From a plasmid, in the NCBI RefSeq assembly GCF_988242995.1, contig NZ_OZ547045.1: 33,568 bases of DNA; one strand, written 5' to 3'. Under the pieces are notes generated by a model that was not told where the DNA came from, ran no database searches, and saw nothing but the letters and a program-made list of their open reading frames with translations. Position numbers and translations under genes: made by a program. Positions within the stretch are counted from its first letter, which is position 1. Each line of letters begins with the position of its first letter. This document shows, in pieces, positions 6,925 to 22,265 of the stretch.

Positions 6925-7238
6925 TATTTTTTATCTCCATAATCGGTAGGTGAGTAACTAGAGCCGCCCCATAGCTTAGTAAATGGGGAGTTAATCATAT
7001 TTAGCCCTTTCGTCATGATAGCGAGCCATATAATGCGAAACATACGGTCGTCATGCTTGCTGATACAAAATTCAATAAACCACAGCAAGCCAAAAAGAAC
7101 TAAGGCCCAAAGGTGGATCGTCATAAATAACGTCGCACAAAATATGAAGGTGGCAATAATCACTGTTCGCGGAACACCGGCAAATGTCGGCAGTCGCGTA
7201 GCGCCTTTAAATAATGGATATTTACCGGATAAATTCAT
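6924..7238 (-). CDS. virB3: VirB3-family T4SS membrane protein
   Basis: 104 aa, two hydrophobic segments, stop overlaps virB4 ATG (ATGA). Confidence 0.85.
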   Translation of the reverse strand: MNLSGKYPLFKGATRLPTFAGVPRTVIIATFIFCATLFMTIHLWALVLFGLLWFIEFCISKHDDRMFRIIWLAIMTKGLNMINSPFTKLWGGSSYSPTDYGDKK

Positions 7239-7287
7239 CGTTTCCTCCCGTTAGATACGGGCCGGGGGAAACCCCCGGCAAACCTTC

Positions 7288-7578
7288 TTAACTCAGCCCA
7301 AACAGGCCAACCAGGTAGGACGCGGAACCGACGACAATCAGACCGACAACAATACGAACCGCCCAGCTAGCAGGGAGCATATGAGCGATCCACGCGATAG
7401 CACTGACGATAATCAGAACGGTGGCCGCAACCGGAATCCACGTCATTAACCAGGAGTTAACCGAACTCATGGAGGATTCACCGGTATCTGCACCGGCGGC
7501 AAGCGCCAGCTCAGGAGCACACAAAGCAACCATCATGAACATTGCCACCGGGAAATAACGTTTAATCGCTGTATTCAT
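7288..7578 (-). CDS. virB2: VirB2/TrbC-family pilin precursor
   Basis: 96 aa, long signal sequence then two hydrophobic helices typical of T-pilin. Confidence 0.85.
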   Translation of the reverse strand: MNTAIKRYFPVAMFMMVALCAPELALAAGADTGESSMSSVNSWLMTWIPVAATVLIIVSAIAWIAHMLPASWAVRIVVGLIVVGSASYLVGLFGLS

Positions 7579-7879
7579 CTTTGTCTAACACTCCATCATC
7601 AGGAAAAATAAAATCAGGCTCATCCAGGAAAAGCCCCACTTCTTTTGCATCAAAATCGTCTCTCAGCATTTCGGCCAGTATCCTCAGATCGGCCCACGTT
7701 CTAACCCCCTCTCCAGACTGGACTCGCAGGGAGCACGTAATTACTCCCCCCTCGCTATTTCTCACATCAAAAAGCGGTATCCATTTCTTTTTATCCATCC
7801 GTTGAATAGCGATACGAATTACTTTTTTTTGATTAAAAACTTCCTCTAACTGCTTCAACAAGATGAGATAAACGCGCAT
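7562..7879 (-). CDS. Hypothetical 105-aa protein between virB1 and virB2 (the position occupied by korA in pKM101/R388-type loci)
   Basis: Intact ORF overlapping virB2 start; no motif recognised; function assigned by position only. Confidence 0.5.
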   Translation of the reverse strand: MRVYLILLKQLEEVFNQKKVIRIAIQRMDKKKWIPLFDVRNSEGGVITCSLRVQSGEGVRTWADLRILAEMLRDDFDAKEVGLFLDEPDFIFPDDGVLDKDEYSD

Positions 7880-10071: not shown

Positions 10072-10725
10072 ATGGACATACTTTCTCTTTTCCCGTCTAA
10101 CCTCATCGCATTATGGGCCGTCTCATTCGGTTTTCTGGCCGTCCTGTATTGGTGGAAAGTCACCGGCAGAAAACGCAGACACAAGCGCAAACAGCAACAG
10201 GCCCGGCGTGTACTCGCAAAAATTCAGACTCTACCGGGGTTCGGCTACAAGATCGCGTATCTCAGAAAGATAGACCCTTTCACCTTTGAAGAATTATTAC
10301 TGGAGGGGTTTGAATCGCATGGCTTCAGAACTATCAGAAACAAGCGCTATACCGGCGATGGAGGCATTGACGGCCAGGTAATCATTGGAAAGGATCGCTA
10401 TCTCATCCAGGCCAAACGCTATGGCGGTCATATCGCTTTACAGCACGTTCAGGAGTTCGATAAGTTGCTTAAACGTCATAATTGTCGCGGTCTGTTTTGC
10501 CATACCGGAAAAACCGGCGCAGGTTCAAAATCAGTTAGCCTTGCCAGTGATCGGATGGAGATTATCAGCGGCCAGCGCCTTATTGATTTACTCACGCCCG
10601 GCAGCTCCTTCACCATCGCAACCGCACCGCAGACAATGATGAGGCGTACCGCAGCAACGCGAGGAACGAACACCATTGTCGAGGAAGCGGATAAAGAAAC
10701 AACCAACAGCATGAGAGTTAATTAA
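10072..10725 (+). CDS. Membrane-anchored Mrr-like (PD-(D/E)xK restriction-endonuclease-fold) protein
   Basis: 217 aa; N-terminal TM helix and poly-basic stretch, then GDGGIDG ... IQAKRY motifs characteristic of the Mrr catalytic domain. Confidence 0.7.
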   Translation: MDILSLFPSNLIALWAVSFGFLAVLYWWKVTGRKRRHKRKQQQARRVLAKIQTLPGFGYKIAYLRKIDPFTFEELLLEGFESHGFRTIRNKRYTGDGGIDGQVIIGKDRYLIQAKRYGGHIALQHVQEFDKLLKRHNCRGLFCHTGKTGAGSKSVSLASDRMEIISGQRLIDLLTPGSSFTIATAPQTMMRRTAATRGTNTIVEEADKETTNSMRVN

Positions 10726-11127
10726 ATGAAGTCTGTAACTATAGAAGCTAAAGCGTTTGCTGAAATGTTGGGAATAACAGAGGGTGAGTTAGTTATTGCT
10801 ATCAAGACAACTGGAAAATTTAAAAACAAGACTATTCCACAGCCTCATACTCCCCATAAATCGAAGAACAGATTTTTATATTCTGACGTGGTGAAGTTTA
10901 TGGAATCAATAAAGCAAAAAGAAAATCTACATAAAAGTTACTTGATGCGTTTTCGTCGGTGCAGGTCATTAGATACTCTTGAAAAGGTATTTGAAAGTTT
11001 GCGCGAAAAGTTAACGGGTAACGAACTGGACGCAATGATGAGCGCGTCAGACCATCGCAGAGCCGAAATTGCTCACAATACTTTATGGGATAAAGTCCCG
11101 GCATCTGCATGGAGAAATGTAAAATAA
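10726..11127 (+). CDS. Hypothetical protein with putative HTH, AT-rich, translationally coupled to the Mrr-like gene
   Basis: 133 aa; ATG overlaps the upstream stop (TAAATG); visibly lower GC than the neighbouring gene; followed by a terminator. Confidence 0.55.
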   Translation: MKSVTIEAKAFAEMLGITEGELVIAIKTTGKFKNKTIPQPHTPHKSKNRFLYSDVVKFMESIKQKENLHKSYLMRFRRCRSLDTLEKVFESLREKLTGNELDAMMSASDHRRAEIAHNTLWDKVPASAWRNVK

Positions 11128-11130
11128 ACA

Positions 11131-11156
11131 AGGCCCGGCACCGGGCTTTGTTTTTA
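11131..11156. terminator. Bidirectional rho-independent terminator
   Basis: GGCCCGGCACCGGGC hairpin flanked by A-run and T-run, between convergent genes. Confidence 0.7.
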
Positions 11157-11158
11157 GT

Positions 11159-11485
11159 CTATCCAATCAGCACTTTTATTTTAGCCCTAACCTCAGCTAA
11201 TACGACAGGAGGCACTTTTCCCTTTTTAACCGCGCCACGTTCCCGCCAATCAAGGCTTTTCACCTGGTCAGCCAGTACAGCGCTCCCCTCCCCGCTCATA
11301 ACCTCAAACGGATAACCTTTTATTTTTGTTGTCATAGGGCAGCACAGCAACAACCCTATTCTGCCGTTATATACCGCAGGGCTTAACACTAAGGCTGGTC
11401 TATGCCCCGCTTGTTCATGCCCTGCTTGCGGATTAAAATCCATCCATACAATATCACCGGCATCAGGAATATAGTCATTCGCCAT
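11159..11485 (-). CDS. mazF: MazF/PemK-family endoribonuclease toxin
   Basis: 108 aa; YIPDAGDIVWMDFNPQAGHEQAGHRPALVLSP ... LADQVKSLDWRERGA ... KVLIG closely resembles E. coli MazF (from memory). Confidence 0.9.
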   Translation of the reverse strand: MANDYIPDAGDIVWMDFNPQAGHEQAGHRPALVLSPAVYNGRIGLLLCCPMTTKIKGYPFEVMSGEGSAVLADQVKSLDWRERGAVKKGKVPPVVLAEVRAKIKVLIG

Positions 11486-11753
11486 TTTCTAACTTCTTCC
11501 TTCTATAGCCAACCCAGATAAACGTCAAAATGATAACGCCGCAAAGAATAAACATCAGTGCAACTGGAGTTGTATCGAGCACAGAAATAACTTGCTTACC
11601 ACCCTGATCGTCTAATGAAAAAGATTTATCATTAAACAACCTGTCTATACCCAACCATATTGAGTAAACGGCAATCCAAACCCATGCAACCTTACCGGCT
11701 ATATCCAGTAAAGCCACCACTCTTTTAAATATTTTTTTCATTGCAGGAGACAT
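11475..11753 (-). CDS. Hypothetical two-helix membrane protein inserted between mazE and mazF
   Basis: 92 aa; ATG 1 nt after mazE stop, stop overlapping mazF start by 11 nt; two hydrophobic segments. Confidence 0.5.
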   Translation of the reverse strand: MSPAMKKIFKRVVALLDIAGKVAWVWIAVYSIWLGIDRLFNDKSFSLDDQGGKQVISVLDTTPVALMFILCGVIILTFIWVGYRRKKLENGE

Positions 11754-11754
11754 A

Positions 11755-12000
11755 TTACAACACCTCTTTTCCTACTGGTGCGCCGAAAGAAATTTCCTCA
11801 TGAATATTCTCGTTAGTAACACAGGCCATCAAAGCATCCAGTGAATATTCCTTCGTTTTAACCGGCACAATAGTAATTTTCCCGTCCTCAACAGACAGCT
11901 CCACTACATCATTCACGCTTAAAGAAGCCTCCCGGATAATCGAAGAAGGGAGACGAACGGACGGGCTGTTACCCCATTTTTTAATAGTTACTTGAGTCAT
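11755..12000 (-). CDS. mazE: MazE/PemI-family antitoxin (AbrB-fold)
   Basis: 81 aa; KKWGNSPSVRLPSSI ... IHEEISFGAPVGKEVL parallels E. coli MazE (from memory). Confidence 0.9.
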   Translation of the reverse strand: MTQVTIKKWGNSPSVRLPSSIIREASLSVNDVVELSVEDGKITIVPVKTKEYSLDALMACVTNENIHEEISFGAPVGKEVL

Positions 12001-12451: not shown

Positions 12452-13036
12452 ATGAAGATAGGCTACGCCAGAAAGTCAACTAAAGAGCAAGACACATCGC
12501 TTGAGTACCAGATTGAGGCTTTACAAAAAGCCGGGTGCGAAAAGTGGTATGCGGAGCAGGTATCGAGAAGCGGTAGTAAACGGCTTAAAGCAGGTACACC
12601 AGAGTTAGAAAATTGCATCAAAGCGCTTCGCCCTGGTGACACGCTGGTTGTGTGGGCGCTAGATCGGTTGGGCGGGACTCTATTACAGCTTTTGCAGCTT
12701 ATGAATGAGCTACGCAACAAAGGCATTCATTTTGAAAGTATTAAAGAACATATCGACACACAAAGTCCAATGGGTGAAATGTACTATTCGCTCATAGCTA
12801 TTTTTTCCAATTTCGAGGTAGCCAGAAACCACGAAAGGACAATGGCCGGGCTTGCGGCTGCAAAGAAGAAAGGGCGCATTGGTGGCAGAAAACCAAAGCT
12901 ATCACCACAAGACATAAAAGAAATTAACGCGCTTGTTAAATCGCCAGAAGTTACGGTAAAAGAGATCGCGGCTCGTTTTAACGTGTCACGGCCAACGATT
13001 TACAGACACATTACCCCCGATAGTAATACTGATTAA
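12452..13036 (+). CDS. Serine recombinase of the resolvase/invertase family (plasmid multimer resolution)
   Basis: 194 aa; N-terminal GYARKSTKEQ with catalytic Ser, C-terminal HTH (VSRPTIYRHI). Confidence 0.9.
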   Translation: MKIGYARKSTKEQDTSLEYQIEALQKAGCEKWYAEQVSRSGSKRLKAGTPELENCIKALRPGDTLVVWALDRLGGTLLQLLQLMNELRNKGIHFESIKEHIDTQSPMGEMYYSLIAIFSNFEVARNHERTMAGLAAAKKKGRIGGRKPKLSPQDIKEINALVKSPEVTVKEIAARFNVSRPTIYRHITPDSNTD

Positions 13037-13068
13037 CCGGCGGCAAACGGTAGCGAAGGAGCTAAACA

Positions 13069-13953
13069 GTGACAGATAAATCAGTACCAGCGAAGCAGAT
13101 AAAAACGGTAAACACCGGAATCGCGATTAAAGAGAATCCCCCCAAAGGGGATGATATGGCATTCACCCATTCGATATTGTGTCAAGTTGGCCTCCCCCGC
13201 TCTAAAGTGGATGGCCGGGAGTTCATGAGAAAATCAGGCGATGCCTGGCTAGTTGTCCAGGCCGGCTGGCTTGATGAAGGAAGCGGCCCGGTAGAACAAC
13301 CGATCCCCTACGGCTCAATGCCCCGTTTAGCGCTCGCCTGGGTATCGTCGTATGCACTCCGCAAAAAGACCCGCGAAATACCGATCGGTAAGAGTGCTAA
13401 TGAGTTCCTGCAATTAATGGGTTTATCAGGCGGCGGCAGACAATACAAAACACTACGCGAACAAATGCACGCGCTGGCAGCTTGCCGGTTGCAGTTAGGT
13501 TTTAAAGGTCGTTCTTTCAACGGCCAGCCTGTAGAGCAATTCGATGCCTGGCAGAAAGACGACCAAAGCGGCCAGCTAAGTTTATGGCCGGGCGTAATGA
13601 CCCTTTCAGAAGGGTACTTTAATGGGCTGATTGATAGCGCCGTTCCTCTCGATAACCGCGCTCTGTACGCGCTAAAGGGTTCGGCATTGTCGTTAGATGT
13701 TTATACGTGGCTTGCGCATCGTCTACACCGCATCCAGGGCCGACCGATTAAACTTCACTGGATGAATTTACGGGAGCAGTTTGCGCAAGAGTATATGGGT
13801 AAAGACCCTGACAAAGATTTTAAGAAGAAATTTCTTCCAGCTCTGCGCGACGTACTGACTGTATACCCACAGGCGAAGGTGGATAAAGTCACCGGAGGGA
13901 TATTACTGTATCCGTCTCCCCCACCTATCCCGTTCAAGGAAGGAAAAAAATAG
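13069..13953 (+). CDS. repA: Putative replication initiator (RepA-like)
   Basis: 294 aa; immediately upstream of the iteron array and DnaA boxes, downstream of resolvase. Assignment is mainly by context. Confidence 0.65.
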   Translation: MTDKSVPAKQIKTVNTGIAIKENPPKGDDMAFTHSILCQVGLPRSKVDGREFMRKSGDAWLVVQAGWLDEGSGPVEQPIPYGSMPRLALAWVSSYALRKKTREIPIGKSANEFLQLMGLSGGGRQYKTLREQMHALAACRLQLGFKGRSFNGQPVEQFDAWQKDDQSGQLSLWPGVMTLSEGYFNGLIDSAVPLDNRALYALKGSALSLDVYTWLAHRLHRIQGRPIKLHWMNLREQFAQEYMGKDPDKDFKKKFLPALRDVLTVYPQAKVDKVTGGILLYPSPPPIPFKEGKK

Positions 13954-14056: not shown

Positions 14057-14370
14057 TTATCCACGTACATCCGACCCCCCTGATTACCGTACATCCGACC
14101 CCCCTTGTCGTACATCCGACCCCCTAGCTTTGTACATCCGACCCCCTAAGTCGTACATCCGACCCCCTTTTTTTGTACATCCGACCCCCTATTTTTTGTA
14201 CATTAGACCCCCTGAAAATACGTACATCAGACCCCCCCTAAACCTATAAGGTGATCTCCTGTAGGTTTCCTGTAGTTTGACCGATAGCACTTAACCTATA
14301 AATTTTGCTTCTAAGAGATCAGCCTGTATGAATGCCCTCCGATAATTTATTCAATAAAATCAGTGGATAA
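14057..14370. other. oriV: DnaA-box-like sites flanking the iterons plus an AT-rich stretch
   Basis: TTATCCACG at 14057..14065; AGTGGATAA at 14362..14370; AT-rich 14280..14400. Confidence 0.7.
14065..14240. repeat. Iteron array: 8 direct repeats of GTACATCCGACCCCC at 21-24 bp spacing (last two degenerate)
   Basis: Repeat units begin near 14065, 14089, 14110, 14132, 14153, 14175, 14198 and 14222. Confidence 0.85.
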
Positions 14371-15133: not shown

Positions 15134-15245
15134 CGCCTCAGAACCCCGTAGAGCCATTCAATCAGAAAAAAGCGGCCTCATGTACAGCTCAACCAAAATA
15201 GCCGCTTACAGAGCCATACAGCGCGTATATAACCAATATCGCCCG

Positions 15246-15690
15246 GCGGCACCGGCGCTAACGTGCCTGTAGGGGCGCTGGCCGCGCTGCGGCCATCCCC
15301 CCAACACCCGGATAAATCGCGCCCGGCCCGTCGCTACGCGCCAGCCCGCCCGCTCAACCGGGCCGTTGTGACGGGCCACTGTTCCGGCAGCGGCATCGTG
15401 TGACAGCCCGCTAAAACCGGCTTTGCAGGGAGGGGGTGGGCGCGTCTCCCGGTTTGATCCCGCAAGGCCCGGCAATTTGACCACGTCGCCCAGGTTGAGA
15501 TCGGCGCAGTTGCCTTTTATTTGTCGGCATCGGCGCTAAATTTAAGTAAATTTATCGTACTATATAATGATACTTAAAGTTGACTTTTGAGGGGGAAAAG
15601 CCTATACTTTATTTACGGTTAGCAATGGTGCTGACCGACCCGGAACCAGTGGCGGCAACCGCTCCGGGGAACTTGCGAAGGGGGCAAGAA
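15246..15690. repeat. CUP-like GC-rich repeat, copy A (5'-truncated; lacks the first ~198 bp of copies B and C)
   Basis: Near-identical to 18515..18959 and 20672..21113. Confidence 0.85.
15580..15636 (+). promoter_or_regulatory. Cassette promoter P1 (TTGACT-17-TATACT) with leader hairpin GGTTAGCAATGGTGCTGACC
   Basis: -35 at 15580..15585, -10 at 15603..15608, inverted repeat at 15617..15636. Confidence 0.7.
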
Positions 15691-15960
15691 ATGAATTTAA
15701 CCACACTGCTTAAAAAGCATTTTGATATTGAGGAATGTACAGATGTAGACCCTATGGTAAACCGGGAGGTTTACGCCATATGGGTTTATGAAAAAGGCGA
15801 GGATTGCGAGCCGCTTTTAATCCTCAAAGATGCTCAGGATGTTATGGGCGTAGACGGCTGGCTTGTCGGGAATATCTATTCCACGTTGCAACATGGCTTA
15901 TTGCTTCAGCATGAAGAACTGAAAATGATGATCCGAAACGGCGAGATTAAGAGCCGTTAA
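15691..15960 (+). CDS. Hypothetical small protein (first gene after cassette P1)
   Basis: 89 aa; ATG 10 nt after the conserved CTGCGAAGG leader end; ORF track shows a longer frame whose upstream part lies in the repeat. Confidence 0.6.
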   Translation: MNLTTLLKKHFDIEECTDVDPMVNREVYAIWVYEKGEDCEPLLILKDAQDVMGVDGWLVGNIYSTLQHGLLLQHEELKMMIRNGEIKSR

Positions 15961-15970
15961 ATGTTTATGC

Positions 15971-16048
15971 GGTCGGCAATGGTGCCGACCGGCCCGGAAT
16001 CAGCGGCGGCAACCGCTCCGGGCAAACTGCGAAGGTACAGAGGCTAAT
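15971..16048 (+). promoter_or_regulatory. Promoter-less copy of the cassette leader (both hairpins plus RBS) in the intercistronic gap
   Basis: GGTCGGCAATGGTGCCGACC (15971..15990), CCCGGAATCAGCGGCGGCAACCGCTCCGGG (15993..16022), CTGCGAAGG, then ATG 16049. Confidence 0.6.
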
Positions 16049-16264
16049 ATGTCAGTAAAAGATTTCTCCCCTACCCTGGAAATTAAATTCCATCGTCGCC
16101 GCTGGCGTATCATGGCTGGATGCTCAAGCCTGGCGTCGTTCCGCTCCGAGCAGGACGCGATTGATGCGCTCAATAAGCGGCGCTCATTCTATGAATATTG
16201 GGCCGGTTCTGCCGGTGTCCAGGCAGAGAACACCGAGCCGGTGATAGTCCACATAACCTATTGA
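16049..16264 (+). CDS. Hypothetical small protein
   Basis: 71 aa; preceded by the leader-only cassette. Confidence 0.55.
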   Translation: MSVKDFSPTLEIKFHRRRWRIMAGCSSLASFRSEQDAIDALNKRRSFYEYWAGSAGVQAENTEPVIVHITY

Positions 16265-16341: not shown

Positions 16342-16399
16342 TTGACTTATGGAGGGTGAACACCTATACTTTATTCATCGGTTAGCAATAGTGCTGACC
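16342..16399 (+). promoter_or_regulatory. Cassette promoter P2 (TTGACT-17-TATACT) with leader hairpin
   Basis: -35 at 16342..16347, -10 at 16365..16370, GGTTAGCAATAGTGCTGACC at 16380..16399. Confidence 0.7.
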
Positions 16400-16453
16400 G
16401 GCCCGGAACCAGCGGCGGCAACCGCTCCGGGCAAACTGCGAAGGAGTAATATT

Positions 16454-17281
16454 ATGTTATCTAGCCGTTTTCGTTCTGCAAATATCCTGCGTTCTGACCG
16501 CCCTCTTAACGATGATCAAATCATGCGTTATGCCCCGTCTATCTTTGCAACTGAAGCGCATGAAAGCCGCTCTGACCGGTACGCTTACATTGCGACCAGC
16601 GAAGTGTTAAACGGTTTGCGTGATAACGGTTTTCATCCGTTTATGGTTTGTCAGACTCGCGTTCGCAACCTGGATAAGCGCGAACACACCAAGCACATGA
16701 TCCGTCTGCGTCATGCCGGGCAAATTAACGGTACAGAAGCGAAGGAAATCATTTTGCTTAACTCGCACGATGGCAGCAGCAGCTATCAAATGCTGGCCGG
16801 TGTATTCCGTTTCGTTTGCCATAACGGTTTAGTGTGTGGTGATACGGTAGCGGATATTCGTATTCCCCATAAAGGCGATGTTACCGAGCGCGTTATTGAA
16901 GGGGCATTTGAGGTGCTGGATCAGTTTGATATGGTTGAAAGCCATATGGAATCTATGAAGTCTGTAACGCTGGATGCGCTGGAGAAGCGTATTTTTGCAG
17001 AAGCGGCGTTAGCACTGCGTTATGACGAACAAAAAGACGGCCCCGCACCAATCGCCGCTAGCCAGCTCCTTGAGGCGCGCCGTTTTGAAGATCGCAAAGA
17101 TGATTTATGGACAACGTTTAACCGCGTACAGGAAAACATTATCCGTGGTGGTTTGAGCGCCAGAACCAAACAGGGGAAATCAACCCGTACCCGCGCCGTA
17201 ACTGGTATGGATAAAGATACGTCTTTAAACCGCGCTTTATGGATTCTCAGCGAGCGCATGAATGAAATTAAAGCCGCTTAA
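16454..17281 (+). CDS. Conserved plasmid leading-region protein, possibly DUF932-type (family name uncertain)
   Basis: 275 aa; ATG after the conserved leader; located immediately upstream of ssb. Confidence 0.6.
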
Positions 17282-17289
17282 TGGCAAAT

Positions 17290-17315
17290 GCCCCGCTTAC
17301 CGGCGGGGCTTTTAT
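17290..17315 (+). terminator. Intrinsic terminator / attenuator between the upstream gene and ssb
   Basis: GCCCCGCttaccgGCGGGGC hairpin followed by TTTTAT. Confidence 0.55.
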
Positions 17316-17337
17316 CAACCCGAAAAAGGTGATTATC

Positions 17338-17838
17338 ATGGCTTCAAGAGGTGTTAATAAAGTAATTCTGGTCGGCAATTTAGGCCAAGATCCTGAAGTG
17401 CGTTATATGCCGAACGGCGGCGCGGTTGCCAACATTACGCTAGCCACGTCAGAAAGCTGGCGCGACAAGCAGACCGGCGAAATGAAAGAACAAACGGAAT
17501 GGCATCGCGTTGTATTATTCGGCAAGCTGGCAGAGGTCGCCGGGGAATATCTGCGCAAGGGTTCGCAGGTGTACATTGAGGGCCAGCTCAGAACACGTAA
17601 ATGGACAGATCAAGCTGGCGTGGACAAGTACACTACAGAGGTTGTCGTTAACGTTGGCGGCACTATGCAGATGTTAGGCGGTCGCCAGCAAAACGGCTCT
17701 CAGCCAGGTAATAATGAATGGGGCCAGTCGCAGCAGCCGCAAGGCGGCCAGCAGTTCAGCGGCCAGCCACAGAACACCGGCGCAGCGCCAGCGGCAGGAA
17801 ATGAGCCGCCTCCTTTTGATGATGATATTCCGTTTTAG
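17338..17838 (+). CDS. ssb: Single-stranded DNA-binding protein
   Basis: 166 aa; OB-fold N-terminus ([43 protein letters not shown]), Gly/Gln-rich linker, acidic C-terminal tail DDDIPF. Confidence 0.95.
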
Positions 17839-17961: not shown

Positions 17962-18264
17962 ATGGCAGTAGAACGCATTTCCCCTGAAGAATGGCAGCGC
18001 ATCGCACCGGCATTGCGTACATGCAGCCAGGTAACGATCGATATGGCTTATGCCGTACTGGTTGATGGCCGTAAACAAGTAGATGTGGCGTCAGAGTTTG
18101 ACCGGTCAAAGCAAACGGTCAATGCGGCTATCAGGCGCGTTACTGCAATTTTTAACGAGGTTATCCCGGAAGATGAGCAGTTAGAATTTGTACAAGTCTG
18201 GTTGCCGCCAGAGCTGGCGAAGCAGGTAAAAGAAATGGCTAAACCGTATCAGAATAAAAAATAA
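17962..18264 (+). CDS. Small HTH transcriptional repressor, KorA/TrfB-like (possible ArdK-type regulator of the cassette promoters)
   Basis: 100 aa; AYAVLVDGRKQVDVASEFDRSKQTVNAAIRRV resembles the KorA HTH region (from memory). Confidence 0.5.
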   Translation: MAVERISPEEWQRIAPALRTCSQVTIDMAYAVLVDGRKQVDVASEFDRSKQTVNAAIRRVTAIFNEVIPEDEQLEFVQVWLPPELAKQVKEMAKPYQNKK

Positions 18265-18316: not shown

Positions 18317-18959
18317 CACTTATGGCGTTCCCTGCGGGGCGGGCTTTCGTGCTGCGCATCGAGCCAGGCAAGCTGTCTCGCCCCTTCGGGCTTCAATCCC
18401 TAACGCCTCCGGGCTGTCGCCCTCCGCGCTCCGCTTGACCCCCACGCCCTGCGCCGGACTTGCCCCGCCTACGGCGGCCCCGCCCCTCCGGGGTGGCTTC
18501 GCCATCCTCTGCCAGCGGCACCGGCGCTAACGTGCCTGTAGGGGCGCTGGCCGCGCTGCGGCCATCCCCCCAACACCCGGATAAATCGCGCCCGGCCCGT
18601 CGCTACGCGCCAGCCCGCCCGCTCAACCGGGCCGTTGTGACGGGCCACTGTTCCGGCAGCGGCATCGTGTGACAGCCCGCTAAAACCGGCTTTGCAGGGA
18701 GGGGGTGGGCGCGTCTCCCGGTTTGATCCCGCAAGGCCCGGCAATTTGACCACGTCGCCCAGGTTGAGATCGGCGCAGTTGCCTTTTATTTGTCGGCATC
18801 GGCGCTAAATTTAAGTAAATTTATCGTACTATATAATGATACTTAAAGTTGACTTTTGAGGGGGAAAAGCCTATACTTTATTTATCGGTTAGCAATGGTG
18901 CTGACCGACCCGGAACCAGCGGCGGCAACCGCTCCGGGCAATCTGCGAAGGTGGGAATT
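18317..18959. repeat. CUP-like repeat, full copy B (GC-rich body ~530 bp plus promoter/leader)
   Basis: Near-identical to 20474..21113. Confidence 0.9.
18849..18906 (+). promoter_or_regulatory. Cassette promoter P3 (TTGACT-17-TATACT) with leader hairpin
   Basis: -35 at 18849..18854, -10 at 18872..18877, inverted repeat at 18887..18906. Confidence 0.7.
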
Positions 18960-19268
18960 ATGAATACTTTCAACGCTGACAAAATCCGCTCTGAACTGGA
19001 TGTTTTAGCGAAAGAAACAATGCCCGGTTGTGGTCTTATTTACGAGCTGTATCAGCGTCGTTTGAGCGCTGCCATTGATAACTTTGTCGCTACCCTGCCA
19101 GCAGAACAACACGCCCAGGCATTTGAACTGGCCCGCCAGGAGTTTGATTACCTTTCTGCGGAAGAAATTGCTGATGAAATCCGCCGCGACTCAGAAAACG
19201 GCTATTGCAGCCACGGCATTGATCGCAATTGCTGCCCTTTGGGTTGCGGGGATTTGGACGATTATTAA
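18960..19268 (+). CDS. Hypothetical small protein with C-terminal Cys cluster
   Basis: 102 aa; ends ...GYCSHGIDRNCCPLGCGDLDDY; ATG after the conserved leader. Confidence 0.6.
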   Translation: MNTFNADKIRSELDVLAKETMPGCGLIYELYQRRLSAAIDNFVATLPAEQHAQAFELARQEFDYLSAEEIADEIRRDSENGYCSHGIDRNCCPLGCGDLDDY

Positions 19269-19351
19269 TTGACAGGGGGCTATTGCCCCCTACAACCAAA
19301 ACGGGCGGCGGCAACCGCCACTATTTAAACAATCTGCGAAGGATATAGATT

Positions 19352-19774
19352 ATGAGCGCATACGTGGTATCTGATAAATCCATTTCTACTATCGTTAAAA
19401 CTCTGGTTATTGCCGGTACACTTCAACCTGTCGAAGCTGTTTCTTTTGGTCAGATGATGCTTAATCTGAATACTCATTCCGTTAATATTCGCTATCAAGA
19501 AAACAGCCCGGCGCACCCTTTTGAATACAGCGACCCGGAATTAAATATCCATGACCCCAAAACTCAAATGCAGGTGATTGTCTGTATTGATGAATATGAA
19601 TATCAGTCCTGCGAGTTTGCCGAATACTATGAAACGATGGTGCATACAGTCCTAAAAGCCATCAAATCAGCGCTTATGCAGGCTTACACGGATATGTTGC
19701 CTAACCCATCGCAATGGAAAGAAAAAAAGTCCTATGACTTGCCAGGCTACTCAGAAGCTGAATGGGGTTTATGA
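19352..19774 (+). CDS. Hypothetical protein
   Basis: 140 aa; preceded by a partial leader (GGCGGCGGCAACCGCC ... CTGCGAAGG); followed by tandem hairpin terminator. Confidence 0.6.
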   Translation: MSAYVVSDKSISTIVKTLVIAGTLQPVEAVSFGQMMLNLNTHSVNIRYQENSPAHPFEYSDPELNIHDPKTQMQVIVCIDEYEYQSCEFAEYYETMVHTVLKAIKSALMQAYTDMLPNPSQWKEKKSYDLPGYSEAEWGL

Positions 19775-19845: not shown

Positions 19846-20005
19846 GCTTACTTATGGCGTTCCCTGCGGGCCGGGCTTTCGTGCTGCGCATCGAGCCAGG
19901 CAAGCTGTCTCGCCCCTTCGGGCTTCAATCCCTAACGCCTCCGGGCTTTCGCCCTCCGCGCTCCGCTTGGCCTCCGGGCTTTCGCCCTCCGCGCTTTGCT
20001 TGGCC
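19846..20005. repeat. CUP-like repeat fragment D (left arm only) with an internal 33-bp tandem duplication
   Basis: Matches the left ~125 bp of copies B and C; CCTCCGGGCTTTCGCCCTCCGCGCT(C/T)(C/T)GCTTGG duplicated at 19939..19971 and 19972..20004. Confidence 0.8.
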
Positions 20006-20473: not shown

Positions 20474-21113
20474 TACTTAGGGCGTTCCCTGCGGGCCGGG
20501 CTTTCGTGCTGCGCATCGAGCCAGGCAAGCTGTCTCGCCCCTTCGGGCTTCAATCCCTAACGCCTCCGGGCTTCGCCCTCCGCGCTCCGCTTGGCCCCCA
20601 CGCCCTGCGCCGGACTTGCCCCGCCTACGGCGGCCCCGCCCCTCCGGGGTGGCTTCGCCATCCTCTGCCAGCGGCACCGGCGCTAACGTGCCTGTAGGGG
20701 CGCTGGCCGCGCTGCGGCCATCCCCCCAACACCCGGATAAATCGCGCCCGGCCCGTCGCTACGCGCCAGCCCGCCCGCTCAACCGGGCCGTTGTGACGGG
20801 CCACTGTTCCGGCAGCGGCATCGTGTGACAGCCCGCTAAAACCGGCTTTGCAGGGAGGGGGGGGGCGCGTCTCCCGGTTTGATCCCGCAAGGCCCGGCAA
20901 TTTGACCACGTCGCCCAGGTTGAGATCGGCGCAATTGCCTTTTATTTGTCGGCATCGGCGCTAAATTTAAGTAAATTTACCGTACTATATAATGATACTT
21001 AAAGTTGACTTTTTAGGGGGGAAAATCTATACTTTATTTACGGTTAGCAATGGTGCTGACCGACCCGGAACCAGCGGCGGCAACCGCTCCGGGTAATCTG
21101 CGAAGGAAAATGT
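20474..21113. repeat. CUP-like repeat, full copy C
   Basis: Near-identical to copy B over about 640 bp. Confidence 0.9.
21005..21061 (+). promoter_or_regulatory. Cassette promoter P4 (TTGACT-17-TATACT) with leader hairpin
   Basis: -35 at 21005..21010, -10 at 21028..21033, inverted repeat at 21042..21061. Confidence 0.7.
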
Positions 21114-21395
21114 ATGAATACGACCCTTTTTGTTTTAATCCTTGCCGTAGCTGGCGCGTTGTATCTGCCCTGGCGACTTGTGCGCGATGGTTACAAAGAG
21201 CTTGTACAGATGTGTCTGTTTTGCTCCTGTATCGTCACGCTGGCCGCTGTATATGCCGTGTTGGTCAATCTCAATAACCCACACCCGTTTATGCCTATGT
21301 TTATCGCGGTAACGGCGTTCGGTGCGGTATTTGTGGCTGATTGCGCTTTATCTCTCTGGCTCTATCAGCGTAAAGCTAAGACGGCTAACCACTAA
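21114..21395 (+). CDS. Hypothetical small membrane protein
   Basis: 93 aa with three hydrophobic segments; an overlapping alternative frame from ATG 21110 looks non-protein-like. Confidence 0.55.
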   Translation: MNTTLFVLILAVAGALYLPWRLVRDGYKELVQMCLFCSCIVTLAAVYAVLVNLNNPHPFMPMFIAVTAFGAVFVADCALSLWLYQRKAKTANH

Positions 21396-21773: not shown

Positions 21774-21831
21774 TTGACTTATCAGGCCGCAAAAAGTATA
21801 CTTTATTTATCGGTTAGCAATGGTGCTGACC
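21774..21831 (+). promoter_or_regulatory. Cassette promoter P5 (TTGACT-17-TATACT) with leader hairpin but no second hairpin; upstream palindrome AGTATCAtattaTGATACT
   Basis: -35 at 21774..21779, -10 at 21797..21802, inverted repeat at 21812..21831. Confidence 0.65.
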
Positions 21832-21851
21832 GTATGCGAAGGAGTAAAGTT

Positions 21852-22007
21852 ATGAAAAAATTCATTGGCAACCGTAACGGCAAGGCGGTTTTTCAGGAAG
21901 GTGATCGTGAGTTGGTAGCCGCTTACCAGATGAAATCCTCCCCGATTCCGGTAACGCCACGCAAGCTGAAAGCTGAAATGGATGCTATCGCCGCTACAGC
22001 CCGATAA
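21852..22007 (+). CDS. Hypothetical small protein
   Basis: 51 aa; ATG after GCGAAGGAG RBS of the shortened leader. Confidence 0.45.
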   Translation: MKKFIGNRNGKAVFQEGDRELVAAYQMKSSPIPVTPRKLKAEMDAIAATAR

Positions 22008-22082
22008 TCATTCACCCGCGCCGTTGGCGCGGGTAACTCTCACAGCGGCGGCAACCGCTTTTTTATGCGAAGGAGCAACGCG

Positions 22083-22265
22083 ATGTATCTATCTTTGATG
22101 GAACAAGCACGACAGGCAGAGGAATTGCGCGACTGGAAAACCGCCGCGCAACTCTACACCCAGGCGATGGCCGTTAGTCCAAAAGCCAGAACTATGCGCC
22201 AGCGCCGCGAAAGGCTGTATCTGCAACAGCGCATTGAGTTTTGCGAGCGTAATTCGAGAATGTAA
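22083..22265 (+). CDS. Hypothetical small protein
   Basis: 60 aa; preceded by AGCGGCGGCAACCGCT hairpin, T6 and GCGAAGGAG. Confidence 0.45.
   Translation: MYLSLMEQARQAEELRDWKTAAQLYTQAMAVSPKARTMRQRRERLYLQQRIEFCERNSRM

Follow-up and report, generated by a model that had tools for sequence, protein, structure and literature searches.

Delver & Belogurov reportedly described, in 1997, the conserved upstream repeat (CUP) elements of the IncN plasmids pKM101/R46, which form an ArdK-controlled regulon. As described, a CUP element is an ArdK-binding site, a promoter and a recombination substrate. CUP elements are promoters under the control of ArdK (PMC6289460, PMC5371602, PMC5027574), and the operator, for ArdK of R388, is a direct repeat of TTGACA at the −35 box (PMC9723621). 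The accessible CUP/ArdK literature, not counting the primary papers of 1993 and 1997, which may note inverted repeats, makes no mention of hairpins, covariation, an invariant loop or a spread beyond IncN. The locus analysed here lies in a stretch of 33 568 nucleotides of plasmid DNA (the window) and corresponds to the CUP locus of pKM101/R46, with promoter modules in front of leading-region genes, ardK, a near-identical repeat of approximately 300 bp and promoters of the form TTGACT-17-TATACT. However, it also includes two types of transcribed hairpin, referred to here as HP1 and HP2.

Short leader hairpins are known from other systems. mRNA is stabilised by the ompA 5′ UTR, with its 5′-terminal hairpin and a second hairpin by the RBS, and by 5′ stem-loops in T7 late mRNAs. 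The module found here resembles them in architecture, with one hairpin a few nt from the predicted 5′ end and another shortly before the SD, and in being portable between genes. However, the sequences are unrelated, the loop of the second hairpin is invariant in the module, where this hairpin also serves promoter-less leaders, and a stabilising effect is putative here. The guanidine-II (mini-ykkC) riboswitch consists of two small hairpins with ACGR loops upstream of the SD. Like the module, it has stems that covary and loops that are conserved, placed directly 5′ of the SD, but the module has a CGGCAA loop in HP2 and a variable loop in HP1, and HP2 also occurs without HP1. A search of the whole window with Rfam 15 gave no hits at the gathering thresholds, and no model matched over any copy of HP1 or HP2 at E≤5. 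Most probably, then, the two-hairpin module represents a leader-RNA element that has not been described before.

Hairpins downstream of CUP promoters in an IncN plasmid

The window is part of an IncN plasmid, being 99.4 % identical to pCFSAN004085, which carries genes for ArdK, CcgAII, SSB, stbB and a MOBF relaxase. The hairpins have ArdK, CcgAII, SSB, DUF932, stbB and MOBF relaxase genes as neighbours, placing them in the leading region, inside the CUP/ArdK-controlled regulon of early establishment genes. The ardK gene (17962..18264, + strand) encodes the KorA/TrfB-like repressor of the regulon; binding of ArdK at the promoters of the window is predicted. Upstream repeats of 300 nt (99–100 % identical) begin at 15243, 18512 and 20668, and there are five promoters, P1 to P5, all on the + strand with the same hexamers, TTGACT-17-TATACT, at 15580..15608, 16342..16370, 18849..18877, 21005..21033 and 21774..21802. 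The window therefore shows the hallmark of CUP elements, conserved upstream repeats that lead into a strong promoter.

Each of the five promoters has HP1 8 nt downstream of its −10 hexamer, so that the hairpin starts at approximately +1 to +3 of the predicted transcript. HP2 comes next at four of the five, and every one of these leaders ends with a strong SD (GCGAAGG…) and the start codon. The form GGTTAGCA-ATGG-TGCTGACC of HP1 is located at 15617, 18887, 21042 and 21812, a variant with an ATAG loop at 16380, and a second variant, GGTCGGCA-ATGG-TGCCGACC, at 15971. This makes six copies on the + strand (0.03 expected), and a flanking C-G pair lengthens each of the stems to 9 bp. The complete form of HP2, CCCGGA-ACC-AGCGG-CGGCAA-CCGCT-CCGGG, has copies at 15639, 15992, 16401, 18909 and 21064, and partial copies at 19304–19319 and 22044–22059 bring the total in the window to seven. 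All of the copies of HP1 and HP2 are on the + strand and are confined to the region from 15.6 to 22.1 kb. When folded as RNA, the leaders form precisely HP1 and HP2, with z-scores of −2.1 to −3.9 relative to shuffled sequences. Thus, the hairpins reported in an initial annotation of this DNA are present, and beyond what chance would give.

The leader behind P1 includes HP1 in its extended form, CGGTTAGCA-ATGG-TGCTGACCG (15616..15637, 9 bp including one U.G), HP2 with the inner stem AGTGG (U.G) and the CGGCAA loop (15639..15668, 47.7 bits), and the SD GCGAAGGGGG with the ATG at 15691 of an ORF of 89 aa (15675..15693). Behind P2 are the HP1 copy with the ATAG loop (16379..16400), a loop change that had been noted correctly, and HP2 (16401..16432, 55.9 bits), with the SD at 16438 and the ATG of a DUF932/DUF945 gene at 16454. 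The corresponding features are HP1 at 18886..18907, HP2 at 18909..18938, SD at 18945 and ATG at 18960 (CcgAII) for P3, and HP1 at 21041..21062, HP2 at 21064..21093, SD at 21100 and ATG at 21114 for P4. At P5, HP2 is absent and HP1 (21811..21832) is followed directly by an SD at 21836 and an ATG at 21852.

The remaining copies are in leaders of other types. As originally described, one leader without a promoter (15970–16023) lies between two ORFs, at 15691–15960 and 16049–16264. It is made up of the HP1 variant CGGTCGGCA-ATGG-TGCCGACCG (15970..15991), which is perfectly paired, and an intercistronic HP2 (15992..16023, 53.9 bits), with an SD at 16029 and the ATG at 16049. For this leader, a putative role in processing, stability or translational control of the mRNA had been suggested. 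In a second promoter-less leader, a GC-rich hairpin, AGGGGGCTATTGCCCCCT, at 19274..19291 replaces HP1, and is followed by the partial HP2 at 19304..19319 (GGCGG-CGGCAA-CCGCC, 27.1 bits), in which the outer stem is missing, an SD at 19336 and an ATG at 19352. The partial copy at 22044..22065 (22.3 bits) comprises the inner stem-loop and a run of six T, and precedes an SD at 22067 and an ATG at 22083. This truncated, terminator-like variant is the only one with the features of an intrinsic terminator, as a T-run was found after none of the five full HP2 copies.

Base pairing and the HP2 apex in related plasmids

The initial annotation had argued, from substitutions within the window, that covariation indicated RNA structure rather than only an operator for a protein. 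Within the window, covariation had been over-counted. The HP1 copy at 15971 is perfectly paired, as claimed, but the changes are two in the 5′ arm and one in the 3′ arm rather than two in each, and represent a single truly compensatory pair (A-U to G-C) together with a change from a wobble to a Watson–Crick pair (U.G to C-G). The AGUGG/CCGCU stem at 15647 had also been counted as covariation, but is a C-to-U change that produces a U.G wobble. On the other hand, the GGCGG/CCGCC stem at 19304 was rightly counted as compensatory.

Cassettes from related plasmids, the comparison proposed at that time, are more informative. For HP2, in an ungapped, loop-anchored alignment of 91 distinct copies, 85 % of the cells are paired compared with 34–47 % when the partners are slid, and there are 86 double-change cells compared with 30 in shuffles, with 86 reached in none of 500; for HP1, among 45 distinct copies, 93 % of the cells are paired (69 % in shuffles), with 66 double-change cells compared with 19 and none of 500 shuffles reaching 66, although, as the copies share descent and the shuffle test is not phylogeny-aware, these statistics overstate independence. 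Changes on both sides were seen in nine of 11 pairs of HP2 and six of eight pairs of HP1, and the slid controls collapse for both hairpins. The enterobacterial and Pseudomonas clades of HP1 have both-sided differences at five stem positions, so the hairpin is retained while the sequence of the stem is clade-specific. Compensatory maintenance of base pairs across diverged homologues, found for both HP1 and HP2, would mark them, from comparison of sequences, as structured cis-acting RNA. The related plasmids thus uphold the claim of a selected nucleic acid structure as opposed to a protein operator, and the structure of the hairpins is well supported, with RNA likelier than ssDNA as the form that folds.

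The apex of HP2, GG-CGGCAA-CC, does not vary among the 91 distinct copies. Part of the sample was gathered using a pattern that fixes GCGGCGGCAACCGC, which inflates the invariance of the inner stem in the loci collected in this way. However, when the loop was left as NNNNNN in a pattern used on metagenomes, CGGCAA was the sole loop in all 81 matches in a leader context. For the anchored alignment, RNAalifold proposed a shifted register, GGCGG-CAA-CCGCU. This was rejected in favour of the register with a CGGCAA hexaloop because the GGGG/CCCC stem of R388 and the GAGG/CCTC stem of a P. syringae plasmid can pair only in the latter, and would otherwise have C.C and C.U mismatches.

Covariance-model matches on the gene strand and upstream of ORFs were found in IncN1 plasmids, R388 (IncW), and IncP-9-like, P. 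syringae, P. mosselii, Rouxiella and Enterobacter plasmids. A pattern scan of genome contigs added copies from P. asuensis, P. moorei, P. huaxiensis, P. turukhanskensis and Burkholderia; as matches in GC-rich genomes were mostly due to chance, only those that are multi-copy and SD-linked were kept. Using blastn, 202 PLSDB records matched. Among 5426 complete E. coli genomes, 44 have a match, which is plasmid-borne every time, with no chromosomal copies, and no match was found in phage records. Each of the 10 plasmid loci examined codes for an ArdK homologue, and tblastn detected one in 24 of the 36 loci that have the HP2 core and a length of 6 kb or more. In these searches, the module is confined to plasmids and linked to ardK. 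The leaders of the ArdK-target genes of R388 also bear HP2.

The genes behind the common leader are mutually unrelated, and the copies on any one plasmid are nearly identical. Both observations would fit a leader that is retained chiefly as recombination homology, namely as a portable junction for the shuffling of CUP cassettes and for gene conversion, with hairpins that have no function. Indeed, rearrangements mediated by CUP repeats, namely deletions, inversions and translocations, have been reported (PMC5371602, PMC5027574, PMC3490853). However, homogenisation cannot explain how IncN, IncW, Pseudomonas and Burkholderia plasmids come to have an identical 10-nt apex on stems that have diverged but can still pair, and leaves unexplained why the pairing of HP1 is kept with entirely different sequences. 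We consider this explanation very unlikely.

Position relative to the SD and the strand that folds

The distance between the HP2 apex and the SD is 15–17 nt in 63 of 98 copies (median 16 nt), and that to the start codon is 25–43 nt. HP2 accompanies 43 of the 48 genes that have an extended SD, and in the approximately one-third of leaders from which a promoter is absent, HP2 and the SD are retained. The constant spacing between HP2 and the SD points to a role at the level of the mRNA.

The position of HP1, at approximately +1 to +22, is also a classic one for an operator, and the palindromes might be duplex-DNA operators at which a second repressor, ArdR, StbA or another dimer, blocks transcription just past the start. 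pKM101 is said to possess two regulators, ArdK and ArdR (PMC6294495, PMC8744291), and StbA too represses these promoters in R388 (PMC3937220). However, the half-sites are asymmetric at the G.U pair and change in a compensatory manner rather than being conserved, as an operator would be, and the portion of HP2 that is invariant is a loop that is not palindromic. The promoter-less leaders and the ArdK target, TTGACA direct repeats that are unlike the hairpin palindromes, also argue against operators. Upstream of the R388 leaders there are repeated TGCATCAT motifs, which match the StbA binding repeats and differ in sequence from the hairpins. An operator function is thus highly improbable.

The nut boxB and HK022 put sites are phage RNA antitermination signals. 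They are also small promoter-proximal hairpins with a fixed loop and a covarying stem, and are repeated in operons, and HP2, alone or with HP1, could similarly load a factor or modify the polymerase directly to give processive antitermination through multi-gene cassettes. There are terminator-like hairpins between cassette genes, and the establishment/conjugation genes of pLS20-type plasmids are under antitermination control (PMC6294495). Nevertheless, no leader contains a boxA (YGCTCTTTA-like) match, no N- or Q-like protein was recognised among ten neighbouring proteins, and it is to the SD rather than the promoter that the spacing is constant. Moreover, operon-end terminators lie just before the next promoter, so a need for read-through is not obvious, and antitermination appears quite unlikely.

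Both DNA strands of the hairpins can fold, and the interior wobble pairs were used to distinguish between them. For HP2, 18 G.U and 6 A.C favour the sense strand, and for the enterobacterial HP1 there are 17 G.U and no A.C, whereas the Pseudomonas-type HP1 has 11 G.U and 16 A.C. The MFE of HP2 is about 1 kcal/mol better on the antisense strand, but this comparison is confounded by the G/U-rich complement (GGUU) of the bulge, and folding energy was set aside as a strand test. The A.C excess in the Pseudomonas HP1, the antisense MFE and the folding of both strands leave room for an action as ssDNA, with the hairpins forming on the transferred strand, or its complement, at conjugative entry and serving as ssi-like priming or loading signals or as sites for a protein that binds ssDNA, for example SSB or ArdC. 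The elements are restricted to the leading region, the orientation of the genes with respect to oriT (stbABC followed by the relaxase genes) implies that it is the template strand that is transferred, and the A.C pairs in the Pseudomonas-type HP1 and at some HP2 junctions would be G.T on the antisense strand. Hairpin-forming ssDNA signals (Frpo/ssi), repeated before early genes, are known from other leading regions (PMC11541004, PMC12672017).

In Frpo, a large hairpin rebuilds the −35 and −10 boxes in its stem, whereas the hairpins of the module are 20–32 nt, are transcribed, and lie downstream of an ordinary duplex promoter whose hexamers are outside the stems. Frpo hairpins are far longer. 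A DNA signal would offer no reason for the narrowly kept distances to the SD and start codon in the 98 copies, the 17 interior wobbles of the enterobacterial HP1 would be C.A mismatches on the transferred strand, and the HP2 strand test, at 18:6, also favours the sense strand. We therefore regard a single-stranded DNA signal as doubtful and action of the hairpins as RNA as likely.

Proposed role of the leader

On balance, the leader is probably a cis-acting mRNA element of a portable CUP/ArdK expression module, in which HP1 would serve as a 5′ stabiliser and HP2 would be linked to the start of translation, with its apex read by a putative partner. The full module consists of an ArdK-type sigma-70 promoter, approximately 8 nt, HP1, 0–1 nt, HP2, 6–8 nt, a strong SD (GCGAAGGAG) and the start codon, with HP2 made up of an outer stem, a 4-nt bulge, an inner stem and the invariant GG-CGGCAA-CC apex.

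The 5′-terminal stem-loops of ompA and T7 late mRNAs protect against 5′-end-dependent decay. As HP1 is predicted to be at the extreme 5′ end and its shape is conserved over its sequence, it may likewise cap the transcript against such decay (RppH/RNase E). HP2 may be part of the translation-initiation region, its spacing to the SD being fixed even in promoter-less intercistronic copies. Because the stems of HP2 covary while the loop and closing pairs are constant, we infer that the apex is recognised by a conserved partner. This putative partner, a host or plasmid protein, would give the establishment regulon a common post-transcriptional setting on top of ArdK repression. A more specific version of this proposal, which we put forward only tentatively, is that HP2 serves as the recognition hairpin, in cis, of a post-transcriptional regulon that has gone unnoticed, in which a conserved trans-acting factor, encoded by the host or the plasmid, reads the GG-CGGCAA-CC apex 6–8 nt 5′ of the SD of establishment genes. 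This regulon might span IncN, IncW and IncP-9-like plasmids and their MOBF relatives, in hosts from the Enterobacterales to Burkholderia, as a second layer over ArdK that sets the early burst of expression after conjugative entry.

Several candidates for what HP2 does or binds were considered and discarded. A simple role as an insulator that holds the SD open is unsupported, as the gain in accessibility is negligible (the unpaired probability from the SD to the AUG is 0.54 in native and 0.51 in shuffled leaders). Searches of the ten neighbouring proteins using NCBIfam and PHROGs revealed no RNA-binding family, only SSB, DUF932-like and ANR-like proteins. A potential antisense partner of the apex, GGTTGCCGCC, is located within the ardK gene of the window, of R388 and of three other plasmids. 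However, it encodes a conserved W-L-P-P motif, for which synonymous codons are used in other plasmids, and the match is a coincidence; no other conserved site complementary to the apex was found on the plasmids. Comparison of the apex with the 16S, 23S and 5S rRNAs of E. coli gave only chance 6-mers and no complementarity of at least 7 nt.

Plasmids of the IncN, IncW and IncP-9 types have a broad host range and are major vehicles for resistance and catabolic genes, and the genes of the leading region (anti-restriction, SSB, methylases and others) decide the success of transfer. The control of establishment genes is now described as purely transcriptional, via ArdK and StbA. The 91 distinct HP2 sequences, which covary and are absent from Rfam, supply a candidate RNA family. 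If the proposed leader-RNA module is real, it would add a post-transcriptional layer to the control of establishment. It would also be of practical use as an expression cassette that is portable and independent of the host, and would offer one small RNA as a target through which the establishment of plasmids could be weakened by disruption.

The two-hairpin leader and its setting in the IncN plasmid

Hairpin 1 (HP1) and hairpin 2 (HP2) of the establishment-gene leaders were found where the initial annotation had placed them. In the window, HP1 is present in six copies, all on the + strand, at 15617, 15971, 16380, 18887, 21042 and 21812 (0.03 expected), and the HP2 core in seven. A covariance model built from 91 homologues recovered five full HP2 copies (48-56 bits) and two partial copies (27 and 22 bits), and no further HP2 in the window below E=0.1. 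The RNA fold of every leader is precisely the proposed pair of hairpins (z = -2.1 to -3.9). HP1 (9 bp, 4-nt loop) begins 8 nt past the five identical promoters P1-P5 (TTGACT-17-TATACT), and HP2 has two stems, an outer one of 5-6 bp and an inner one of 5 bp, separated on the 5' side by a 4-nt bulge (AACC), with CGGCAA as the loop. The full module consists of promoter, 8 nt, HP1, 0-1 nt, HP2, 6-8 nt, a Shine-Dalgarno sequence (SD; GCGAAGG…) and ATG.

The copy at 15970-16023 lies between two ORFs and has no promoter, as had been reported. At P5 (21774) HP1 is followed directly by the SD, at 19304 only the inner part of HP2 is found, after a different GC-rich hairpin, and at 22044-22065 the HP2 inner stem plus T6, just ahead of the final small ANR-like gene (60 aa), scores as an intrinsic terminator. 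These last three variants indicate that the parts of the module are separable. At 13036-13071, the repA gene (GTG at 13069) has the extended SD GCGAAGGAG also seen in module genes and is preceded by a degenerate HP2-like sequence (ACCGG-CGGCAA-ACGGT), which suggests that its leader derives from the module.

The 1-kb stretch around the hairpins shares 99.4 % identity with pCFSAN004085, an IncN plasmid (MOBF relaxase, MPF_T), and approximately 89 % with about ninety further IncN plasmids. The annotated gene order in pCFSAN004085 is repA, DUF945, SSB, ArdK family regulator, CcgAII, SprT-like and StdB/StbB. Homology to this plasmid also places, at 10072-12000, genes for a restriction endonuclease and for a mazEF-type toxin-antitoxin pair in the backbone, upstream of resP and repA. 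Iteron-like direct repeats, GTACATCCGACCCCC (family D7), lie downstream of repA at 14089-14196 and are probably the replication origin. Three 300-nt direct repeats (15243-15542, 18512-18811 and 20668-20967; 99-100 % identical), directly upstream of P1, P3 and P4, correspond to the CUP 'bodies' and are GC-rich, with small ORFs in either direction. A 36-nt GC-rich repeat, GCCTCCGGGCTGTCGCCCTCCGCGCTCCGCTTGACC (family D6), occurs four times between cassettes (18405-18440, 19937-19972, 19970-20005 and 20561-20596). A terminator-like hairpin with a T-run (17290-17309), adjoined by a weak promoter-like site (17312-17339), separates the DUF932 gene from the true ssb start and probably marks the boundary of a separately controlled ssb-ardK unit.

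Covariation of the stems and the invariant apex

The 91 distinct HP2 sequences were anchored on the apex (GG-CGGCAA-CC) alone and, as MAFFT added no gaps, the alignment was not fitted to the structure. Of its cells, 85 % are paired, a share that falls to 34-47 % on shifting the 3' partners by 1-3 columns, and both sides change at 9 of the 11 pairs. Double-change cells number 86 against 30 ± 4 in shuffles (0/500 as high); because the copies share descent and intra-plasmid homogenization, shuffling, here and for HP1, exaggerates their independence. Outer-stem variants include CCCGG/CCGGG, CCTGG/CCAGG, CTTGG/CCAAG, ACCGG/CCGGT, CATCAG/CTGATG and CCGGG/CCCGG, and inner-stem variants GACGG/CCGTC, GGCGG/CCGCC, GGGG/CCCC and GAGG/CCTC. 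RNAalifold preferred a shifted triloop register, but GGGG/CCCC and GAGG/CCTC fit only the hexaloop register.

HP1 was aligned gap-free on the common GCAAT. Among 45 distinct sequences, 93 % of cells are paired compared with 69 % in shuffles, and there are 66 double-change cells compared with 19, in a set from which seven spurious anchors had been removed and in which at least 5 Watson-Crick pairs were required, which biases it toward pairing. Between the enterobacterial stem (CGGTTAGCA/TGCTGACCG) and that of Pseudomonas (GTCGAAGC/GCTTCGAC) both sides differ at five positions, and further compensations are found inside clades, e.g. CGGTTGGCA/TGCCAACCG and GTCGAGGC/GCCTCGGC. Unrelated hairpins take the place of HP1 in P. 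silesiensis, P. asuensis, Burkholderia and R388, and a GC-rich hairpin often replaces it in promoter-less leaders.

The covariation proposed from the window gains strong support from homologous cassettes. Two of the examples used for it need correction. HP1 at 15971, described as having two changes on each arm with pairing kept, has two plus one; pairing is kept, with one compensatory change (A-U to G-C) and one conversion of U.G to C-G. AGUGG/CCGCU, listed as stem covariation in HP2, is a wobble.

Retention of the CGGCAA loop extends well beyond the window, as the ten bases of GG-CGGCAA-CC show zero variation among the 91 sequences. Several of these loci had been gathered using patterns or models containing the loop, some with the core fixed, and a metagenome scan was therefore run in which the commonest stems were specified but any hexamer (NNNNNN) was allowed as the loop. 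CGGCAA was present in 81/81 leader-context matches, and the 14 remaining matches were all in one unrelated coding sequence.

Distribution beyond IncN

A blastn search with a 126-nt leader matched 202 plasmids in PLSDB, including 79 from Pseudomonas. Ten loci were fetched and scanned with a model derived from the copies in the window, namely IncN1, IncW R388, an F-type Rouxiella plasmid, an Enterobacter plasmid, two IncP-9-like plasmids, and P. syringae, P. mosselii, P. silesiensis and uncultured-bacterium plasmids. Each has 2-8 copies, all on the gene strand and immediately upstream of ORFs. Multi-copy loci in P. asuensis, P. moorei, P. huaxiensis, P. turukhanskensis and Burkholderia came from a genome-wide pattern scan, most of whose single matches were attributed to chance in GC-rich genomes and discarded. 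In E. coli, the leader is found in 44 of 5426 complete genomes, in 205 places, all on plasmids and none on the chromosome; no phage record matched. An ArdK/TrfB-like protein is encoded in 10/10 plasmid loci, and ArdK was the commonest protein alongside the element by tblastn (in 24 of the 36 loci with the HP2 core that span 6 kb or more).

Matches in two Streptomyces-labelled assemblies (loci L056, L057, L094 and L095) are short contigs with Pseudomonas IncP-9-like leaders and genes, and are likely to be contamination. R388 also has an HP2-like hairpin outside the ArdK-target promoters (6996-7021; GCCCGA-AAGG-CGGCAA-CCTC-TCGGGC), after a long T/A run and upstream of an annotated 'DNA-binding protein' gene (7169-7798) that, judged by position, is probably kfrA.

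Level of action and candidate mechanism

Several known elements do not account for the hairpins. ArdK binds TTGACA direct repeats adjoining the -35 box, and the TGCATCAT motifs upstream of the R388 leaders, which we take to be StbA repeats, differ from the hairpins. A terminator was excluded, except for the truncated 22044 copy, as was a Frpo-type single-stranded DNA promoter, the hairpins being short with the promoter hexamers outside them. The leaders contain no boxA and match no Rfam family. The exact HP2 core was not found in this context in the accessible literature, and hairpins go unmentioned in the papers on R388 regulation. The 1993 and 1997 primary CUP and ard descriptions, outside the literature covered, may mention these inverted repeats; later papers citing them give only ArdK sites and promoters.

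Action on the mRNA is favoured by four features. The distance from HP2 apex to SD is fixed (median 16 nt; 15-17 nt in 63/98 copies), HP2 is present at 43 of the 48 genes with an extended SD (GCGAAGGAG/GCAGGAG), and approximately one third of leaders are promoter-less with HP2 and the SD retained. Finally, interior wobbles, counted with a strand-neutral register fit, favour the sense strand in HP2 (18 G.U versus 6 A.C) and enterobacterial HP1 (17 versus 0), with two adjacent G.U pairs in one metagenomic clade; Pseudomonas-type HP1 shows the opposite trend (16 A.C versus 11 G.U). Folding energies did not discriminate between strands. Gene orientation relative to oriT points to the transferred strand being the template strand, and a function in single-stranded DNA would therefore need the complement. 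We consider it likely that the module acts at the RNA level.

Searches for a reader of the HP2 apex revealed no complementarity to rRNA, no conserved antisense site and no recognized RNA-binding family among neighbouring proteins. The apex complement GGTTGCCGCC occurs in ardK of five plasmids (window 18200-18209 and, in fetched loci, L002:14862, L003:5900, L004:13573 and L011:3078), but there it encodes a conserved W-L-P-P, and synonymous codons in other plasmids indicate coincidence. A simple SD-insulating role was unsupported.

A 5'-terminal stem-loop shields bacterial mRNAs from 5'-end-dependent decay (ompA, T7), and HP1, at the predicted 5' end, would fit such protection. HP2 acts like a component of the translation-initiation region and, as its stems covary freely while the loop and closing pairs are absolutely conserved, its apex is probably read by some factor.
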